Virus record (IMG/VR): IMGVR_UViG_2531839662_000023 | Source: a virus | Taxonomy: Duplodnaviria > Heunggongvirae > Uroviricota > Caudoviricetes | DNA: 26,750 nucleotides | Reading direction: 5' to 3' (one strand) | Shown: positions 1,981 through 14,801 of the stretch, one piece after another | Numbering within the stretch: the stretch's first letter is position 1 | Layout: each line of letters begins with the position of its first letter | Made by a program: the position numbers and the translations under genes | Notes under the pieces: model-generated | Seen by the model: only the letters and a program-made list of their open reading frames with translations | What the model was told of the DNA's origin: nothing | Database searches by the model: none

Positions 1981-2871
1981 TCAGGCTGCCAGATCATTGT
2001 TTCCGATGGAAGCATAATAAGCTTTTTCTGCTTCTGCCGGAGGAGTATGGCCCAGCCTTCCCAGCAATCGTCGATTGTTATACCAGTCCACCCACGTTAG
2101 TGTGGCCAGTTCCACTTCTGCACGGTTTTTCCAGCTCTTACGGTGTATTACCTCCGCTTTGTAAAGACCATTGATGCTCTCAGCCATCGCGTTGTCATAC
2201 GAGTCGCCTGTACTCCCTGTTGATGCCAGTAATCCGGCTTCTTTTAGTCGCTCCGTATAGGCCAGTGACACATACTGAGAGCCTTTATCGCTGTGATGGA
2301 TGGTGCCAGACGGACGACGGGCCCACAACGCCTGCTCCAGCGCATCCAGCACGAATGTCGTTTCCATAGACGATGAGACCCGCCACCCCACGATGTATCC
2401 GGCAAACACATCAATGATGAACGCCACATAGACGAAGCCCCGCCATGTGCTGACGTAAGTAAAATCAGCCACCCACAGCTGGTCAGGTCGTTCTGCCACG
2501 AACTGACGGTTTACGCGGTCGCCTGCGGCAACGGCTTTCCGGCTGATGGTCGTACGGACCTTTTTACCCCGGAGAACACCGGCAAGTCCCATAACCGCCA
2601 TGAGGCGCGCCACTGTACATCTGGCCACCCTGATTCCTTCCCGTAACAACTGACGCCAGACTTTACGCACACCGTACACCTGATGATTTTCATCGTATAC
2701 GCGCTGTATCTCTCTCTTCAGCCAGTCATCGTGCTGCGCACGGGCACTGCGTTTATCCGGATGATGTCGCTGTTGCTGACAATGGTAATACGTTGACGGG
2801 GCAATATGCAGTTCGCTGCATACCGGTCCGACCCCGTACTGCTCACGCAGCTTATCCAGCAGTGGCATCAT
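1981..2871 (-). CDS. IS3-family transposase OrfB (DDE integrase core)
   Basis: 296 aa with an rve-type DDE region (WVADFTYV...HHSDKGSQY...[10 protein letters not shown]). Overlaps orfA by 4 nt, the usual arrangement for programmed frameshifting in this family. Confidence 0.85.
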
Positions 2872-3194
2872 TTTTTCCAGAGGCGGTCGAACTCCGCCTT
2901 CGCAAAATAAGCGGAAGCCTGGCGAAGGATATCGTTACTGCGGCGCAGTTCACGATTTTCACGTTCCAGCTCTTTCAGACGCTGACGTTCAGCGCTGGTG
3001 AGCCCACCATCACCGCCCCCGGTATCCCGCTCATGCTGGCGAACCCAGACACGCAGAGTCTCCGGCGTACAGCCAATCTTTGGGGCAATGGAACAAATTG
3101 CCGCCCACTGTGAGTCATATTCATCCTGACTTTCCAGAACCATACGAATCGCCCGCTGACGGACTTCGGGGGAAAAACGAGTATTTTTAGTCAT
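2868..3194 (-). CDS. IS3-family transposase OrfA (HTH)
   Basis: 108 aa beginning [22 protein letters not shown] with a leucine-zipper-like C-terminus ([27 protein letters not shown]). Recalled as IS629/IS1203-type OrfA. Confidence 0.85.
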
Positions 3195-3268: not shown

Positions 3269-3949
3269 TCATCGCCATTGCTCCCCAAATACAAAACCAA
3301 TTTCAGCCAGTGCCTCGTCCATTTTTTCGATGAACTCCGGCACCATCTCGTCAAAACTCGCCATGTACTTTTCATTCCGCTCAATCACGACATAATGCAG
3401 GCCTTCACGCTTCATGCGCGGGTCATAGTTGGCAAAGTACCAGGCATCTTTTCGCGTCACCCACATGCTGTACTGCACCTGGGCCATGTAAGCCGATTTT
3501 ATTGCCTCGAAACCACCGAGCCGGAATTTCATGAAATCCCGGGAGGTAAACGGGCATTTCAGTTCAAGGCCGTTGCCGTCACTGCATAAACCATCGGGAG
3601 AGCAGGCGGTGCGCATACTTTCGTCGCGATAGATGATCGGGGATTCAGTAATATTCACGCCGGAAGTGAATTCAAACAGGGTTCTGGCGTCGTTCTCGTA
3701 CTGTTTTCCCCAGGCCAGCGCCTTAGCATTAACTTCCGGAGCCACACCGGTGCAAACCTCAGCCAGCAGGGTGTGGAAGTAGGACATTTTCATGTCAGGC
3801 CACTTCTTTCCTGAGCGGGGCTTTGCTATCACGTTGTGAACTTCTGAAGCGGTGATGACGCCGAGCCGTAATTTGTGCCATGCATCATCCCCCTGTTCGA
3901 CAGCTCTCACGTCGATCCCGGTACGCTGCAGGATAATGTCCGGTATCAT
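3269..3949 (-). CDS. exo: Lambda-type 5'-3' exonuclease (Red alpha)
   Basis: 226 aa, near-identical by recall to lambda Exo ([40 protein letters not shown]...GEQWR). Appears intact. Confidence 0.9.
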
Positions 3950-4326
3950 GCTGCCACCTTCTGCTCAGTGGCTTTCTGTTTCAGGAATCCAAGAGCTTTC
4001 ACTGCTTCGGCCTGTGTCAGTTCTGACGATGCGCGAATGTCGCGGCGAAATATCTGGGAACAGAGCGGCAATAAGTCGTCATCCCATGTTTTATCCAGGG
4101 CGATCAGCAGAGTGTTAATCTCCTGCATGGTTTCATCGTTAATGGCTTTTTTGCTGGCCCCGTGGCGTTGCAAATGATCGATGCATAGCGATTCAAACAG
4201 GTGCTGGGGCAGGCCTTTTTCCATGTCGTCTGCCAGTTCTGCCTCTTTCTCTTCACGGGCGATCTGCTGGTAGTAACGCGCCCAGCTCTGAGCCTCAAGA
4301 CGATCCTGAATGTAATAAGCGTTCAT
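3946..4326 (-). pseudogene. In-frame fusion of gam N-terminus to bet C-terminus
   Basis: Residues 1-60 match lambda GamS ([17 protein letters not shown]...[10 protein letters not shown]). Residues 61-126 match the lambda Bet C-terminus ([57 protein letters not shown]). Overlaps the exo start by 4 nt, as bet does in lambda. Confidence 0.7.
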
Positions 4327-4401
4327 GGCTGAACTCCTGAAAATGGCTGTGAAAATATCGCCCGCGAAATGCCAGGCTGATTAGGAAAACAGGAAAGGGG
4401 A

Positions 4402-4692
4402 TTAGCGATTCAGGCCGTTACCGCGTCCGTCGAGAAAAACTTCCACGAGCAAATCACGGGTATAAGTGCGCTCGATGCCGCGATGCAGATAAAGCCGTCC
4501 GCGTAAATTAGCTGATGCAGTCCAGGTACCATCTTTGTGTTTGACCAGCATTCCTGGCATGACCGCACCTCGATTAACGGTCTGCGTTCCGTAATGTTGA
4601 TGAACCATAAAAACTCCTGCCCGTAAGCTGGGCTGCTGAACATATAGAGACTTCTGCGCGTATTCAGGCGGTGGATGGCCGCCGGTTGTCAT
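4402..4692 (-). CDS. Hypothetical protein at the kil/cIII position; start uncertain
   Basis: Open frame ends 76 bp upstream of the gam start. Candidate starts are ATG at 4692 (GAGG about 10 nt upstream) and ATG at 4608 (AGGAG 5 nt upstream). The 136-aa track ORF begins at a TTG. No family recognised. Confidence 0.3.
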
Positions 4693-4885
4693 AACTAAGC
4701 CGCCTCGTTGAAGCGACTGAGGTATAAAGTGTTGTGTTGATTTCAGCTGGTCACACCGACGTTCACGCGTCCGTTTCACCCCTCGCACTCCCCGAAGCCT
4801 GCTGAAATTCAAACTGCGGATCTAAGCGGTCATCGCAACGGTGAAACAGGTGGTTACCGTATCGTTGTGTCGTTGCGATGAATTT

Positions 4886-4940
4886 ATTTAAAACTATAGT
4901 TGTTTTATCGTCAACAACAAAAGTTGTTTTATCGGTTGTT
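4886..4940 (-). promoter_or_regulatory. Candidate early-left promoter/operator (pL/oL-like)
   Basis: Cluster of GTTGTT/AACAAC hexamers (GTTGTT 4899-4904, AACAAC 4913-4918, GTTGTT 4923-4928 and 4935-4940) resembling the half-sites of the OR palindrome at 6430-6454. Minus-strand -35-like TTGTTG and -10-like TATAGT overlap them. Confidence 0.3.
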
Positions 4941-5049
4941 TTAAATATAACTGGTTGTATTTAGGATGGATTTATTTTGTGACTTGCATCGCATAGCGAT
5001 AACTGAAGTGAGGTGTGGTGGTTTTTTGGACGGTATGAGTTATGAGGGG

Positions 5050-5082
5050 GAGGAAAAGAAAACCCGGCGCGGTTGCCGGGTA
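5050..5082 (-). terminator. Rho-independent terminator downstream of the lipoprotein gene
   Basis: GC stem CCCGGC(5063-5068)/GCCGGG(5075-5080), followed on the minus strand by TTTTCTTTTCC, immediately 3' of the stop at 5089. Confidence 0.5.
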
Positions 5083-5088
5083 TGATTA

Positions 5089-5469
5089 TCAGTCAGCCCA
5101 ACCTGATTTCGAGTTTATTTGGGTTTCTGACATTGTGTATTTCTTAATCGTGTCATCGTTAAAAAGAATAGTAAGTTCTTTTTTCGTACCGTTCGTTCCG
5201 TTATGGAATAATCCATAGAATGGAATAAAAGTGGTGCCATTAACTTTTACTTTTGCAAAGGCGTACTTCCAGATCTCCTTTCCACTGTCAGTATATGAAA
5301 CAGCATCAGGAGAACCAAAGTAAGATTTAACCTCATTCTTGGTTGTTTTACCTTCCTGAAGTTTAGACTGGACACTAATTTCAGTTTCATTTTTGAGTTG
5401 CTGGTTGCCTGAAGAAGCACACCCAGCCAATACAGATGCCATCATGGCAGCGATTAGGATTTTTCTCAT
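5089..5469 (-). CDS. Predicted lipoprotein, BamE/SmpA-OmlA-like fold
   Basis: 126 aa with signal peptide and lipobox MRKILIAAMMASVLAG-C. Mature region resembles the BamE fold (KLQEGKTTKNEVKSYFGSPD...WKYAF...LTILFNDD). Sits between cI and the early-left genes, where lambda carries rexAB. Confidence 0.6.
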   Translation of the reverse strand: MRKILIAAMMASVLAGCASSGNQQLKNETEISVQSKLQEGKTTKNEVKSYFGSPDAVSYTDSGKEIWKYAFAKVKVNGTTFIPFYGLFHNGTNGTKKELTILFNDDTIKKYTMSETQINSKSGWAD

Positions 5470-5698
5470 TTTATGTTTCCATTCATTATAATCAGAAACA
5501 TCTTAACATAATGATTCGAAATAAAAACCGCTACGAGATAGGGAGACATTTTGCTGACAGTAGCAACAAATCTCAGCTAACAACGAGAATATTTACTGAA
5601 ATATGCAAACAGATTTGGCGTTCTTATAGAGAATTTAGTGCAATATCTAATCCGAGTGGTATAAACCTTAACCTTCGCTCCCTTAAGTCGTAGATAAA

Positions 5699-6388
5699 TT
5701 AACCATGCTTCCTGTACGTCTGCGGCATGCTTCCAATGACCTTACCGAATATGAACACCCGGTTCATCTCGTCTTTCTCGATCGGGTCCCACGGCGAGTA
5801 GCTCTTGTTATCAGAGATAACCAGCAGCTTATCCTTCATCATTTGAAGACGTTTTACATGGGCAGTGTCGTCGTACAGAAACGCATAGATGCCATCACCG
5901 TCGAAAGATTTAACAGTGATATCAACGAACAGCAGGTCACCTGGTTCGATCGTCCCTGACATGCTGTCACCTCGCACGTTAATGATGCGGATATTTTCCG
6001 CCTTCCTGCCATCGAACATGTGACGAGCATCGTCAAACGAGTACTCAACCGAGCGTAGAACTTCTACAAACTCACGGTTGATTACACCTGGCCCGGCACT
6101 GACTTCTATATCAAGAACGTCAATTTTGAAGTATTTGGAATGGCTGACAGTTGATTGTATTGGTTGCACTGTACTGTCTGACATATTTCCAACGCCAGAA
6201 GATAACCATTCTGCGCGTACACCCAAAGCGTTCGCGATCTCCACGATTTTAGTTGTTTGGTTAGCTTTCCCTGTTTCGATTTTCTGAATAGCAGCCTGGC
6301 TAACCCCGACCAAATCCCCAAGCGCCTTTTGTGTAAGGCCTCGCGCTAATCTGGCTTCTTTAAGTCTTTCTGAGAGTGTTGTTTTCAT
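5699..6388 (-). CDS. cI: CI-type phage repressor (HTH_XRE plus S24 LexA-like peptidase)
   Basis: 229 aa. N-terminal HTH (LTQKALGDLVGVSQAAIQKIETGK) and C-terminal S24 autoproteolysis domain (GDSMSGTIEPGDLLFVD...KRL). Divergent from the cro-like gene. Confidence 0.85.
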   Translation of the reverse strand: MKTTLSERLKEARLARGLTQKALGDLVGVSQAAIQKIETGKANQTTKIVEIANALGVRAEWLSSGVGNMSDSTVQPIQSTVSHSKYFKIDVLDIEVSAGPGVINREFVEVLRSVEYSFDDARHMFDGRKAENIRIINVRGDSMSGTIEPGDLLFVDITVKSFDGDGIYAFLYDDTAHVKRLQMMKDKLLVISDNKSYSPWDPIEKDEMNRVFIFGKVIGSMPQTYRKHG

Positions 6389-6429
6389 AGATCAAATGTA
6401 CAACCAAGGTTTTATTTCATCAAACGAAA

Positions 6430-6454
6430 ATGGTTGTTGACTAAAAACAACCAT
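6430..6454. promoter_or_regulatory. OR operator: 25-bp perfect palindrome overlapping the rightward promoter
   Basis: ATGGTTGTT-gactaaa-AACAACCAT is a perfect inverted repeat. The -35-like TTGACT (6437-6442) lies inside it and a GGAGG RBS precedes cro at 6493. Confidence 0.55.
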
Positions 6455-6492
6455 AGTTTTAATCTTGATTCGGATTAACCACGGAGGTTGTT

Positions 6493-6723
6493 ATGAACCC
6501 AGCAATCAAAACAGCGATCAATATCGTTGGTTCACAAAAGAAACTAGGCGATGCCTGCGAAGTTTCACAGCAGGCCGTCTATAAGTGGCTTCACAACAAA
6601 GCAAAGGTATCCCCTGAACATGTCGGCAGCATTGTTACGGCTACTGGTGGAGTTGTGAAGGCATACCAGATTCGCCCGGATCTTCCGAAGTTGTTTCCAC
6701 ACACCGAAAAGAACGCAGCTTAA
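6493..6723 (+). CDS. Cro-like HTH regulator (YdaS-type)
   Basis: 76-aa ORF transcribed divergently from cI across the operator region, with an HTH-like segment (ACEVSQQAVYKWLHNK). Position and size fit Cro. Confidence 0.7.
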   Translation: MNPAIKTAINIVGSQKKLGDACEVSQQAVYKWLHNKAKVSPEHVGSIVTATGGVVKAYQIRPDLPKLFPHTEKNAA

Positions 6724-6792
6724 ATTTCCATTTCACGCTCTTTAACAATAAGCAATCAACTTAACAGTCAATTCAAACTAAAGGAGTCAATT

Positions 6793-7332
6793 ATGCAACC
6801 ACTTACATACCAACAGACTAGCGGATTTATTCCGACTGCGGTGATAAATCGTTCTCAAACAAAACAAGCTCCAGGCCACGAAAAAATCCGTGATGCCGTC
6901 CGCGCCTGGTCGGCTGTAGATAATCAGGATGTCGTTGCCGCACTCATTGTGAATGAGTATCGGGAGCAGGGCGACGGCACCATCGATTTCCCTGATGATG
7001 TCAGCCGTGCACGCCAGAAGCTGTTCCGCTTCCTCGATAACAAATTCGATTCTGAAAAATACCGAAATAACGTGCGTGAACTGACCCCGGCAATTCTGGC
7101 GGTACTACCGCTGGAATATCGCGGTTACCTGGTTGAGCAGGATAGCTTCATGACTCGGTTGGCTGAAATGGAAAAGGAACTCAGTGAGGCAAAACAGGCT
7201 GTCATTCTCAACGCACCACGCCACCAGAAACTGAAGGAAATGAGTGAAGGTATTGTGTCGATGTTTCGTGTGGACCCGGATCTGGCTGGTCCATTAATGG
7301 CGATGGTGACCACCATGCTGGGGGCAATATGA
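6793..7332 (+). CDS. YdaT-like protein (CII-position regulator)
   Basis: 179 aa immediately downstream of the cro-like gene. The motif LTPAILAVLPLEYR resembles Rac YdaT as recalled. Confidence 0.5.
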   Translation: MQPLTYQQTSGFIPTAVINRSQTKQAPGHEKIRDAVRAWSAVDNQDVVAALIVNEYREQGDGTIDFPDDVSRARQKLFRFLDNKFDSEKYRNNVRELTPAILAVLPLEYRGYLVEQDSFMTRLAEMEKELSEAKQAVILNAPRHQKLKEMSEGIVSMFRVDPDLAGPLMAMVTTMLGAI

Positions 7333-10580: not shown

Positions 10581-11486
10581 CTATATTTCCAGACATCTGT
10601 TATCACTTAACCCATTACAGGCCCGCTGCCGCAGATATTCCCGTGGCGAGCGATAACCCAGCGCACTATGCGGATGCCATTCGTTATAATGCTCGAACGC
10701 CTCTGCAAGGTTCTTTGCTGCCGTTAACCCGTCTGGTTTGGGCATGATACTGATGTAGTCACGCTTTATCGTTTTCACGAAGCTCTCTGCTATTCCGTTA
10801 CTCTCCGGACTCCGCACCGCCGTGTTCTTCGGTTCAAGTCCCAACATCCGGGCGAACTGGCGTGTTTCATTAGCCCGGTAGCATGAACCATTATCCGTCA
10901 GCCACTCCACTGGAGACGACGGAAGATCGTTGCCGAAGCGGCGTTCCACCGCTCCCAGCATGACGTCCTGTACTGTTTCACTGTTGAAGCCGCCGGTAGT
11001 CACCGCCCAGTGCAGTGCCTCACGATCACAGCAGTCCAGCGCGAACGTGACACGCAGTCTCTCTCCGTTATCACAGCAGAACTCGAACCCGTCAGAGCAC
11101 CATCGCTGATTGCTTTCTTTCACGGCCACTCTGCCTGTATGTGCCCGTTTCGATGGCGGTACAGCAGGTTTTCGCTCAAGCAACAGCGCATTCTGGCGCA
11201 TGATCCGGTAAACACGTTTGGCATTGATCGCAGGCATACCATCAAGTTCTGCCTGTCTGCGAAGCAGCGCCCATACCCGACGATAACCATACGTGGGCAG
11301 CTCTCCGATAACATGGTGTATACGGAGAAGCACATCCGTATCATCAGTGTGACGACTGCGGCGGCCATCCATCCAGTCATCGGTTCGTCTGAGAATGACG
11401 TGCAACTGCGCACGCGACACCCGGAGACAACGGCTGACTAAGCTTACTCCCCATCCCCGGGCAATAAGGGCGCGTGCGCTATCCAC
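10581..11486 (-). CDS. insD: IS2 transposase InsD (OrfB)
   Basis: 301 aa ([30 protein letters not shown]...), recalled as IS2 InsD. Confidence 0.9.
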
Positions 11487-11809
11487 TTTTTTGCCCGTCC
11501 ATATTCAACGGCTTCTTTGAGGAGTTCATTTTCCATCGTTTTCTTGCCGAGCAGGCGCTGGAGTTCTTTAATCTGCTTCATGGCGGCAGCAAGTTCAGAG
11601 GCAGGAACAACCTGTTCTCCGGCGGCGACAGCAGTAAGACTTCCTTCCTGGTATTGCTTACGCCAGAGAAATAACTGGCTGGCTGCTACACCATGTTGCC
11701 GGGCAACGAGGGAGACCGTCATCCCCGGTTCAAAGCTCTGCTGAACAATTGCGATCTTTTCCTGTGTGGTACGCCGTCTGCGTTTCTCCGGCCCTAAGAC
11801 ATCAATCAT
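11444..11809 (-). CDS. insC: IS2 transposase InsC (OrfA)
   Basis: 121 aa from the internal ATG ([40 protein letters not shown]...), recalled as IS2 InsC. The track ORF has a 15-aa extension. Confidence 0.9.
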
Positions 11810-11900
11810 CTGTTCTCCAATGACTAGTCTAAAAACTAGTATTAAGACTATCACTTATTTAAGTGATACTGGTTGTCTGGAGATTCAGGGGGCCAGTCTA

Positions 11901-13326: not shown

Positions 13327-13878
13327 ATGAAAACACTTATCGTTTCAACTGTATTGGCATTCATAACATTTTCTGCGCAGGCTGCAGCATTTCAGGTCAC
13401 TAGTAATGAAATAAAAACAGGAGAGCAACTTACAACGTCTCATGTCTTTTCTGGATTTGGGTGTGAAGGTGGTAATACATCGCCCTCATTAACCTGGTCT
13501 GGTGTTCCTGAAGGTACCAAAAGCTTTGCCGTAACTGTATATGATCCAGATGCACCTACAGGCAGTGGTTGGTGGCATTGGACTGTTGTTAATATTCCAG
13601 CAACAGTAACATATTTGCCCGTTGATGCAGGGAGACGTGATGGAACAAAACTGCCGACTGGTGCTGTTCAAGGCCGAAATGATTTTGGCTATGCTGGGTT
13701 TGGTGGCGCATGTCCTCCTAAAGGAGATAAACCACATCATTACCAGTTTAAAGTATGGGCTCTAAAAACTGAAAAGATTCCTGTAGATTCTAACTCCAGC
13801 GGAGCGTTAGTTGGTTATATGCTTAATGCTAATAAAATCGCAACCGCTGAGATAACACCAGTTTATGAGATAAAGTAG
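13327..13878 (+). CDS. ybcL: Periplasmic PEBP/RKIP-family protein YbcL
   Basis: 183 aa with signal peptide MKTLIVSTVLAFITFSAQA and PEBP motifs (YDPDAPTGSGWWHW...PPKGDKPHHYQFKVWAL). Confidence 0.85.
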   Translation: MKTLIVSTVLAFITFSAQAAAFQVTSNEIKTGEQLTTSHVFSGFGCEGGNTSPSLTWSGVPEGTKSFAVTVYDPDAPTGSGWWHWTVVNIPATVTYLPVDAGRRDGTKLPTGAVQGRNDFGYAGFGGACPPKGDKPHHYQFKVWALKTEKIPVDSNSSGALVGYMLNANKIATAEITPVYEIK

Positions 13879-14685: not shown

Positions 14686-14801
14686 AAGTGTTTTAAGAAG
14701 GAGCAATTCTATCGATTTTGATTTTGGGAAATCAACACGGCATAATTATGTCACCGGAGCCTGAACAACTCCGGTGACTTCTGCGCTAAACGGGGACGTT
14801 T

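Follow-up and report, generated by a model that had tools for sequence, protein, structure and literature searches.

Predicted 434-like operators on both sides of cI in a DLP12-like lambdoid prophage of Escherichia coli

Results

In a 26,750-nucleotide stretch of viral DNA (IMG/VR record IMGVR_UViG_2531839662_000023; this whole stretch is called the window below), we analyzed the region around the repressor gene cI, where copies of the motif GTTGTT/AACAAC cluster on both sides of the gene. The window is 100% identical to the chromosome of the porcine isolate Escherichia coli UMNF18, and the motif clusters lie in the early region of a DLP12-like lambdoid prophage. An earlier, sequence-only reading had proposed that the clusters are right and left operators (OR and OL) of the CI repressor. 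Judged from sequence, they very probably are, with a different binding unit from the one proposed. The following features are referred to throughout:

5699 to 6388, minus strand: cI, repressor gene encoding a 434-like helix-turn-helix (HTH) N-terminal domain and an S24 autocleavage domain (Pfam HTH_3 and Peptidase_S24)
6493 to 6723, plus strand: cro, encoding a YdaS-family HTH protein (Pfam YdaS_toxin, E = 6.6e-17; PHROG 35)
6400 to 6413, plus strand: predicted OR3, perfect site ACAACCAAGGTTTT, over the pRM spacer and -10
6424 to 6437, plus strand: predicted OR2, ACGAAAATGGTTGT, left half degenerate, right half perfect
6447 to 6460, plus strand: predicted OR1, perfect site ACAACCATAGTTTT, filling the pR spacer
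6478 to 6491: possible fourth site, ACCACGGAGGTTGT, one mismatch, over the cro Shine-Dalgarno sequence
6437 to 6442, plus strand: predicted pR -35, TTGACT
6460 to 6465, plus strand: predicted pR -10, TAATCT, after a 17-bp spacer
6418 to 6423, minus strand: candidate pRM -35, TTGATG, read from the sequence and adjoining OR2
6395 to 6400, minus strand: candidate pRM -10, TACATT, read from the sequence
4890 to 4903, minus strand: predicted OL1, perfect site ACAACTATAGTTTT, over the pL spacer and one edge of the -10
4914 to 4927: predicted OL2, ACAACAAAAGTTGT, perfect on both strands
4909 to 4914, minus strand: predicted pL -35, TTGACG, fused to the right half of OL2 as GTTGTTGAC, the same arrangement as at pR
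4886 to 4891, minus strand: candidate pL -10, TTAAAT, 17 bp from the -35
4934 to 4939, minus strand: lone half-site ACAACC upstream of OL2
4953 to 4958, minus strand: second lone half-site ACAACC upstream of OL2

CI is 229 amino acids long. Among solved structures, the best match to its N-terminal domain (HTH_3, E = 5.4e-13) is the 434 repressor (phmmer E = 4.5e-9, residues 5 to 68; 1per, 2or1, and 1r69), and its C-terminal part matches UmuD and UmuD' in the PDB. By sequence the S24 domain is intact, as the earlier reading had held: it matches Pfam PF00717 over residues 95 to 218 (E = 1.2e-18) and retains the self-cleavage residues Ala98-Gly99 in the linker, Ser142 in GDSM, and Lys179 in KRL. 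Since these residues are present and are invariant in an alignment of seven CI sequences, RecA-dependent self-cleavage is plausible. The protein is identical to the CI of PhiR26_1, PhiR34_1, and PhiR5_1, plaque-forming phages whose GenBank records name laboratory E. coli strains as hosts. Given this identity, we infer that the immunity module of the damaged prophage is probably still active and would render the host immune to PhiR26_1-like phages; the earlier description of the module as functional and SOS-responsive is likewise drawn from sequence. The Cro protein gave a weak Pfam match to P22_Cro besides YdaS_toxin.

The hexamer GTTGTT/AACAAC is enriched in the window, with 33 copies versus 18.7 ± 4.4 in shuffled sequences (0 of 100 shuffles reached 33), and it clusters on both sides of cI as first reported, with four copies at 4899 to 4940 and two at 6433 to 6451. 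The informative unit, however, is not the hexamer but the 14-mer ACAAC-N4-GTTKT. Perfect copies lie at 4890 to 4903, 4914 to 4927, 6400 to 6413, and 6447 to 6460 and nowhere else in the window; these four distinct sites amount to five strand-specific perfect matches, compared to 0.17 ± 0.45 in shuffles, none of 100 of which reached five. Across the complete 48-kb genome of PhiR26_1, perfect 14-mers and dense clusters of half-sites are similarly confined to the equivalents of OL and OR. Operators of phage 434 are also 14 bp long, with five contacted bases on either side of four central bases that are not contacted (reference sequence ACAATNNNNATTGT), and three such sites occur in each of OR and OL (PMC1636474). 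By analogy, a CI dimer would read each site here through the same geometry of five, four, and five bases.

For comparison across genera, one genome per species was scanned, yielding 35 relatives of CI, and the 11 lineages that carry the recognition helix SQAAIQKIE were analyzed over up to 7.7 kb each. These lineages comprise the window and loci from Klebsiella, Kosakonia, Providencia, Morganella (three), Photorhabdus, Xenorhabdus, Izhakiella, and Enterobacter, or about nine genera.

In the spacer between cI and cro, the sequence-only reading had described a 25-bp perfect palindrome at 6430 to 6454 and a weaker related site at 6401 to 6412. The former consists instead of two perfect 9-bp arms, ATGGTTGTT at 6430 to 6438 and AACAACCAT at 6446 to 6454, around an asymmetric 7-bp center (GACTAAA). 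This inverted repeat arises where two adjacent 14-bp operators meet, OR2 contributing its right half and OR1 its left half. The weaker site does exist, but it lies at 6400 to 6411 and belongs to the full, perfect dyad at 6400 to 6413, so that the right operator has three sites rather than one strong and one weak. Their centers are 24 bp (OR3 to OR2) and 23 bp (OR2 to OR1) apart. Among relatives, OR2 has a weak left half but never departs from GTTGT in its right half. The rightward TTGACT reported to overlap the inverted repeat was found at 6437 to 6442, and the pR -10 in relatives occupies the same position as TATTAT, TAATAT, or TATTCT. We rejected a terminator called on both strands of the inverted repeat; with only 3 GC pairs and a place between divergent promoters, we regard it as a by-product of half-sites that face each other.

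Predicted pRM reads leftward as TTGATG (6423 to 6418), 17 bp, and TACATT (6400 to 6395). Its start is predicted at about 6388, on the A of the cI ATG, so that the cI mRNA would be leaderless. Both the pRM -10 pattern TANNTT and the ∼11-bp distance from OR3 to the ATG hold across lineages; in the scan, OR3 to the cI start codon measured 25 bp in 9 of 11 loci, 26 bp in L012 and L013, and 34 bp in L016 (where the tblastn match begins at cI residue 3). Five lineages (L012, L013, L014, L015, and L017) have an extra site with no mismatches over the cro ribosome-binding site, 27 to 31 bp from OR1. In view of this variable spacing, we rate its one-mismatch counterpart in the window (6478 to 6491) only as a possible site, and its status as a fourth operator is uncertain.

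The same interval contains a sequence resembling the operator of the CII-like protein YdaT (TTGATTCGGATTAACCAC, 6465 to 6482, two mismatches), between the pR -10 and the cro ribosome-binding site. Outside E. coli this sequence is not conserved. YdaT of the Rac prophage footprints the equivalent promoter and ribosome-binding region (PMC11879457). At the position expected for pRE, in the interval between cro and the cII-like gene, no good match to a YdaT box was found.

On the left, the leftward promoter-like sequence that had been noted over the motif cluster is TTGACG (4914 to 4909), 17 bp, and TTAAAT (4891 to 4886). Read leftward, this predicted pL aligns almost base for base with the pR region, and the centers of OL1 and OL2 are 24 bp apart. 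The -35 is TTGACA, TTGACT, or TTGACG in 11 of 11 lineages, and the position of the -10 is kept in all 11 as TTAAAT, TTTAAT, or TATATT. Every relative also has one to three ACAACY half-sites upstream of OL2, always in the same orientation and at variable spacing. A rightward promoter from a consensus scan (TTGCGA-16-TATAGT, 4873 to 4900) was discounted because its -10 falls inside OL1 and is missing from the phages of a second immunity type described below.

Throughout the 11 lineages, perfect 14-mers are confined to the cI-cro spacer or to a pair beyond cI. That pair, OL2 and OL1, is present in 11 of 11 lineages, starts 155 to 2016 bp past the end of cI, and has a spacing of 24 bp (23 in one lineage). 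OR3 and OR2 are 24 bp apart (25 in two lineages), and OR2 and OR1 are 23 bp apart in all 11. At both ends GTTGTTGA joins the right half of OR2 or OL2 to the -35, and 17 bp separate this -35 from the -10. Among 44 full sites, positions 1, 3, 4, 10 to 12, and 14 are invariant and positions 2 and 5 are conserved in 43; position 13 is G or T, and positions 6 to 9 vary. Three predicted repressor sites occupy fixed positions relative to the candidate -35 and -10 elements of divergent cI and cro promoters in 11 of 11 lineages, and the proposed OR/OL layout was supported by every comparative test that we ran.

The comparison was extended to a second immunity type. In this type, referred to as type B and represented by the E. 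coli phages PhiR30_1 and Lambda_4C10 (L006 and L007), the recognition helix is AQPTIWRL. In these phages and in a Raoultella prophage (L010), helices 2 and 3 of CI read AQPTIWRLTSGNARGS versus SQAAIQKIETGKANQT in the window. CI of PhiR30_1 and Lambda_4C10 is identical to that of the window from about residue 85 to the C terminus. None of the three loci contains ACAAC-N4-GTTKT; in the two phages, GCTATTG is found instead, in the cI-cro spacer as well as where the left cluster lies in the window. CI from Izhakiella (L018) presents the reverse case: 39% identical overall, it diverges in the C-terminal domain, yet its helix and the operators are those of the window. Taken together, the type-B phages and L018 indicate that the DNA motif follows the recognition helix in both directions. 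By sequence comparison, then, the operators change together with repressor specificity, i.e., the immunity type. Nucleotide differences between the two E. coli types are limited to two patches in a sliding-identity comparison:

4879 to 4968: left specificity patch, a pL/OL cassette of ∼90 bp (sliding identity against L006 and L007 and raw sequences)
6146 to 6790: right specificity patch, with cI codons 1 to ∼81, OR, cro, and the cro-cII spacer (∼50% identity to type B inside the patch only)

The left edge of the pL/OL patch is the predicted pL start at ∼4879, where homology between the types resumes. Around and between the patches identity is 85 to 100%, exchangeable cargo genes excepted.

We weighed three other explanations for the clusters against recognition by CI. 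First, the sites could be read mainly or only by the YdaS-type Cro protein, or by another factor encoded in the swapped patch, with CI recognizing something else. The cro gene does lie inside the right patch, so the covariation fits Cro equally well, and YdaS of prophage CP-933P footprints the same intergenic region as its repressor PaaR2. The geometry of the sites and their outer ACAA...TTGT, however, match the operators of the 434 repressor, which is homologous to CI and not to a YdaS-family Cro, and operator type tracks helix 3 among the aligned proteins, all of which are CI. To our knowledge, CI and Cro share operators in every characterized lambdoid switch, which makes reading by both likelier than reading by Cro only. 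We therefore regard the Cro-only explanation as unlikely.

Second, a single dimer could bind one 25-bp inverted-repeat operator (GTTGTT-N7-AACAAC), with the hexamer as the recognition unit and 6400 to 6413 as a weak auxiliary site. This would account for the perfect complementarity of the 9-bp arms, and a similar arrangement, GTTGTT-N8-AACAAC, is present at 4899 to 4918. However, the spacer between hexamers is 7 bp at OR, 8 bp at OL of the window, and 7 bp at OL of L018, whereas the spacing within ACAAC-N4-GTTKT is constant in all 44 sites; constancy within sites and variation between them argues against a single 25-bp operator. The first A of AACAAC also varies in relatives (TACAAC). Moreover, OR3 and OL2 would be left unexplained: they are dyads of opposite polarity, and OL2 is perfect in 10 of 11 lineages. 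For the closest structural homologue, the bound sites are 14 bp long and of the 5+4+5 type, and a center-to-center distance of 13 bp between hexamers is ill suited to an HTH dimer spanning one turn. We consider such an operator quite improbable. Third, although pL and pR align over ∼40 bp that include the -35, spacer, and -10, it is hardly credible that the likeness reflects duplicated promoter DNA rather than protein-binding sites, since OR3, although outside the promoter-like segment, forms a perfect or near-perfect dyad in every lineage, flanking and intervening bases diverge across genera while positions 1 to 5 and 10 to 14 stay fixed, and the type-B swap places another shared motif at both clusters.

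We next consider occurrence. Among 5,426 complete E. coli genomes, the segment encoding the CI N-terminal domain together with OR was detected in 1,521 (1,529 places, 2 on plasmids) and the 85-bp left patch in 1,522 (blastn; 1,530 places, 2 on plasmids), these counts being separate totals rather than an intersection of lists. The left cluster is therefore not lost where the repressor is kept, either in these genomes or in the 11 lineages. An apparent loss of OL in a third of carriers, seen when a megablast search with the 85-bp patch returned only 1,015 genomes, was set aside as a sensitivity artifact, because single-nucleotide polymorphisms (SNPs) between the sites break the 28-bp seed word; in four sampled loci, OL1 and OL2 were unchanged and the SNPs lay between them. 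The immunity type is thus found in about 28% of complete E. coli genomes, or ∼41% when the sister type with the same C-terminal domain is included: the corresponding type-B segment was detected in 719 genomes, and a query concatenating types A (that of the window) and B detected 2,210. Both types occur together in ∼30 genomes, compared to ∼200 expected under independence. Mixed inactive dimers formed through the identical oligomerization domains could explain this shortfall; a shared attachment site or population structure could do so equally.

Discussion

We judge it highly probable, from the sequence comparisons above, that this region is the immunity switch of a DLP12-like lambdoid prophage, in which a dimer of CI, with a 434-type HTH domain and a LexA/S24 domain, would bind ACAAC-N4-GTTKT at OR1 to OR3 and at OL1 and OL2. 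We located the sites in the sequence and computed their statistics, conservation, and covariation with the recognition helix; from site positions and by analogy with lambda, 434, and PaaR2, we infer how binding, order of occupancy, activation from OR2, a leaderless cI, OL-OR looping, and SOS induction would fit together. CI bound to OR1, within the pR spacer, and to OR2, adjoining the pR -35, would shut off cro, cII, O, and P. Lambda CI activates pRM from a site centered ∼42 bp upstream of the start, and the center of OR2 lies ∼42 bp upstream of the predicted leaderless cI start, where it could serve in the same way. OR3, over the spacer and -10 of pRM, would mediate autorepression and be the first target of Cro. 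OL2 and OL1 would act on pL, a copy of the same promoter architecture that is predicted to drive kil, gam, bet, and exo leftward. Upon RecA-stimulated cleavage at Ala98-Gly99, the DNA-binding domain would come apart from the oligomerization domain, and pR and pL would be freed. By analogy with lambda, 434, and PaaR2/YdaS, CI and Cro may both read the sites.

Several points weigh against this interpretation. Because cI and cro are always swapped together, covariation cannot tell which of the two proteins reads the sites. The left half of OR2 has two to three mismatches, and its designation as a site is based on position and the invariant right half. A consensus promoter scan did not call pR, pRM, or pL, whose hexamers match 8 to 9 of 12 consensus positions; position 2 of the pL -10, TTAAAT, is not the canonical A. 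The full sites at OL number only two, and the genome totals for OL and OR, as stated, were counted separately. The prophage itself is damaged by insertion sequence (IS) elements and a gam-bet deletion, so that "functional" covers the immunity module at most. In the searchable literature, we found no paper describing a CI of this type or its operators and no binding, transcription start, or induction data for this CI.

In function and layout the system is, as far as sequence can tell, a standard lambdoid switch, closest to 434 in operator geometry and DNA-binding domain. The N-terminal domain of CI is homologous to that of 434 over 64 residues and keeps the Gln aligned with 434 Gln28. Both systems share outer ACAA...TTGT bases, an S24-type C-terminal domain, divergent pRM and pR promoters with three sites, and a second operator at pL. 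They differ at operator position 5 (C, as in ACAAC, in nearly all sites here, versus ACAAT in the 434 reference), in the recognition helix (QAAIQK versus QQSIEQ, differing at 4 of 6 positions), in OL (two full sites plus lone half-sites versus three sites), and in their partners, which here are a YdaS-family Cro and a YdaT-family CII rather than 434 Cro and CII. Given the differences in helix and position 5, heteroimmunity with phage 434 is likely.

With lambda, whose 17-bp sites are separated by 7-bp and 6-bp spacers to give center spacings of 24 and 23 bp, the system shares a tripartite OR with these same spacings. Also in common are a middle OR site ∼42 bp from a leaderless cI start (predicted here), an OL 1 to 3 kb away past accessory genes and a terminator, and the Ala-Gly, Ser, and Lys self-cleavage residues. 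In contrast, lambda operators are 17 bp long, and the HTH domain that reads them is unrelated and carries an N-terminal arm. Lambda also has three OL sites, rexAB in the cargo position, and N and nutL downstream of pL; the prophage studied here lacks an annotated N, and boxA was found at its nutR position only.

Judged from sequence, the gene content most resembles that of the PaaR2 switch of CP-933P and of Rac. PaaR2-YdaS-YdaT and RacR-YdaS-YdaT have the same layout, with repressor and cargo transcribed leftward and a YdaS-type cro and YdaT-type cII rightward. In CP-933P of E. coli O157:H7, the OR sites are footprinted by both PaaR2 and YdaS, a copy at OL/pL lies upstream, and the paaR2 mRNA, like that of lambda cI, is leaderless (PMC8630535). 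The operators of both switches are unrelated in sequence to those here, however, that of PaaR2 being an 18-bp palindrome (consensus half GTTTAGTAA) in four repeats. Those switches were studied in cryptic prophages, whereas plaque-forming phages have the very same CI as the window, with an S24 domain that is intact by sequence.

Knowledge of the operator and promoter layout would make homoimmune prophages predictable, would allow defective prophages that still protect their host from related phages to be identified, and would make recognizable the accessory or defense genes beside cI that are likely expressed with it in lysogens. The natural swap of a recognition helix onto an unchanged C-terminal domain offers a ready-made system for the evolution of repressor specificity. 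The general picture of lambdoid switches is unchanged. More speculatively, specificity may reside on two small unlinked cassettes that must be exchanged jointly, the 90-bp pL/OL patch and the 645-bp patch with CI helices 1 to 3, OR, and cro, with the oligomerization domain left identical and with the extra half-sites and the cro ribosome-binding site copy as possible regulatory layers that have no counterpart in lambda or 434. We hold this proposal to be doubtful as it stands. If it were true, type-A and type-B CI subunits residing in one cell would form mixed dimers that bind neither operator set, a built-in incompatibility of heteroimmune relatives.

Neighboring genes and other sequence elements

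Read from left to right, the order starts with int and an IS3-family insertion and continues with exo, a gam'-'bet fusion, and a KilR-like kil up to the left motif cluster; this is followed by the terminator, a lipoprotein gene, cI, cro, a cII-like gene, O, P, ren, emrE, and ybcK interrupted by IS2. The features concerned here are as follows:

4402 to 4608, minus strand: kil, KilR-like cell division inhibitor (RefSeq WP_000233577.1), first gene downstream of predicted pL
5062 to 5081, minus strand: predicted intrinsic terminator at the end of the cI-cargo transcript (7-bp stem with 6 GC pairs, followed by a T-run)
5089 to 5469, minus strand: lipoprotein accessory gene, an open reading frame (ORF) with a lipobox (PHROG 3135)
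6793 to 7332, plus strand (rightward): cII-like gene, YdaT family

The immunity locus is 99.7% identical over 3.1 kb to Escherichia phage PhiR26_1, a complete 48-kb phage whose record gives MG1655 as host and which is in effect an intact DLP12. Relative to this phage, the window is damaged by an IS3-family element left of exo (1981 to 3194), an in-frame deletion that leaves the first 64 Gam residues fused to the C-terminal end of Bet (3946 to 4326), and an IS2-like element that breaks ybcK (10581 to 11854).

The interval from the cI stop codon to the terminator (5089 to 5698) is a variable cargo slot, equivalent in position to lambda rexAB. In the window it holds the lipoprotein gene, which has a weak BamE-like match and belongs to a PHROG family of unknown function. 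Otherwise near-identical prophages carry a HipA-like kinase with DUF3037 ("HipA/HipD"), GevT/GevA, DUF3800, or pairs of hypothetical genes in the slot, or leave it empty. The slot looks like a hotspot for defense or toxin-antitoxin genes, which are probably cotranscribed with cI. The terminator is kept in both immunity types and is positioned like the immunity region terminator of lambda. Between the left operator patch and the slot, an island of ∼115 bp (4970 to 5085) containing this terminator and the palindrome ATCGCATAGCGAT is common to both types; it could act as a recombination anchor for swapping of the cargo or the operator patch.

At the 5' end of the predicted pL transcript lies a perfect 11-bp inverted repeat with a 30-nucleotide loop (4830 to 4840 and 4871 to 4881, minus strand), kept in both E. 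coli immunity types. The 283-nucleotide leader folded no better than shuffled sequences (z = -0.86), for which reason we dropped the idea of an antiterminator like put of HK022; the HK022 record fetched for comparison had no put annotation. An Rfam scan of 4300 to 7000 returned a chance-level hit only (E = 0.71), so neither the immunity region nor the pL leader yielded a known RNA element. This phage group has no annotated N gene. The ORF that precedes kil in the same frame encodes an arginine-rich stretch, KRTRERR, outside the Kil family profile; the match of the longer kil ORF to PHROG 294 ("Kil") is limited to residues 60 to 135. A perfect boxA-like sequence (GCTCTTTAACAA) lies at 6737 to 6748 between cro and the cII-like gene, at the nutR position. 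This is its sole perfect copy, with none in the pL leader; several relatives in other genera have GCTCTTTAACAA downstream of their pL.

Elsewhere in the window, the intergenic region between ybcM and ybcN contains a perfect match (TTGATTTTGGGAAATCAA, 14718 to 14735) to the published YdaT operator TTGATT-N6-AATCAA, for which ∼0.003 matches are expected in the window. The Rac YdaT paper makes no mention of this box (PMC11879457). It lies just upstream of ybcN, is followed by a hairpin, and is 100% identical in K-12 MG1655. At the equivalent place ahead of ybcN, PhiR26_1 also has a perfect YdaT box (13371 to 13388), whose spacer differs. We regard the site in the window as a possible YdaT target where the nin/Q region is entered.

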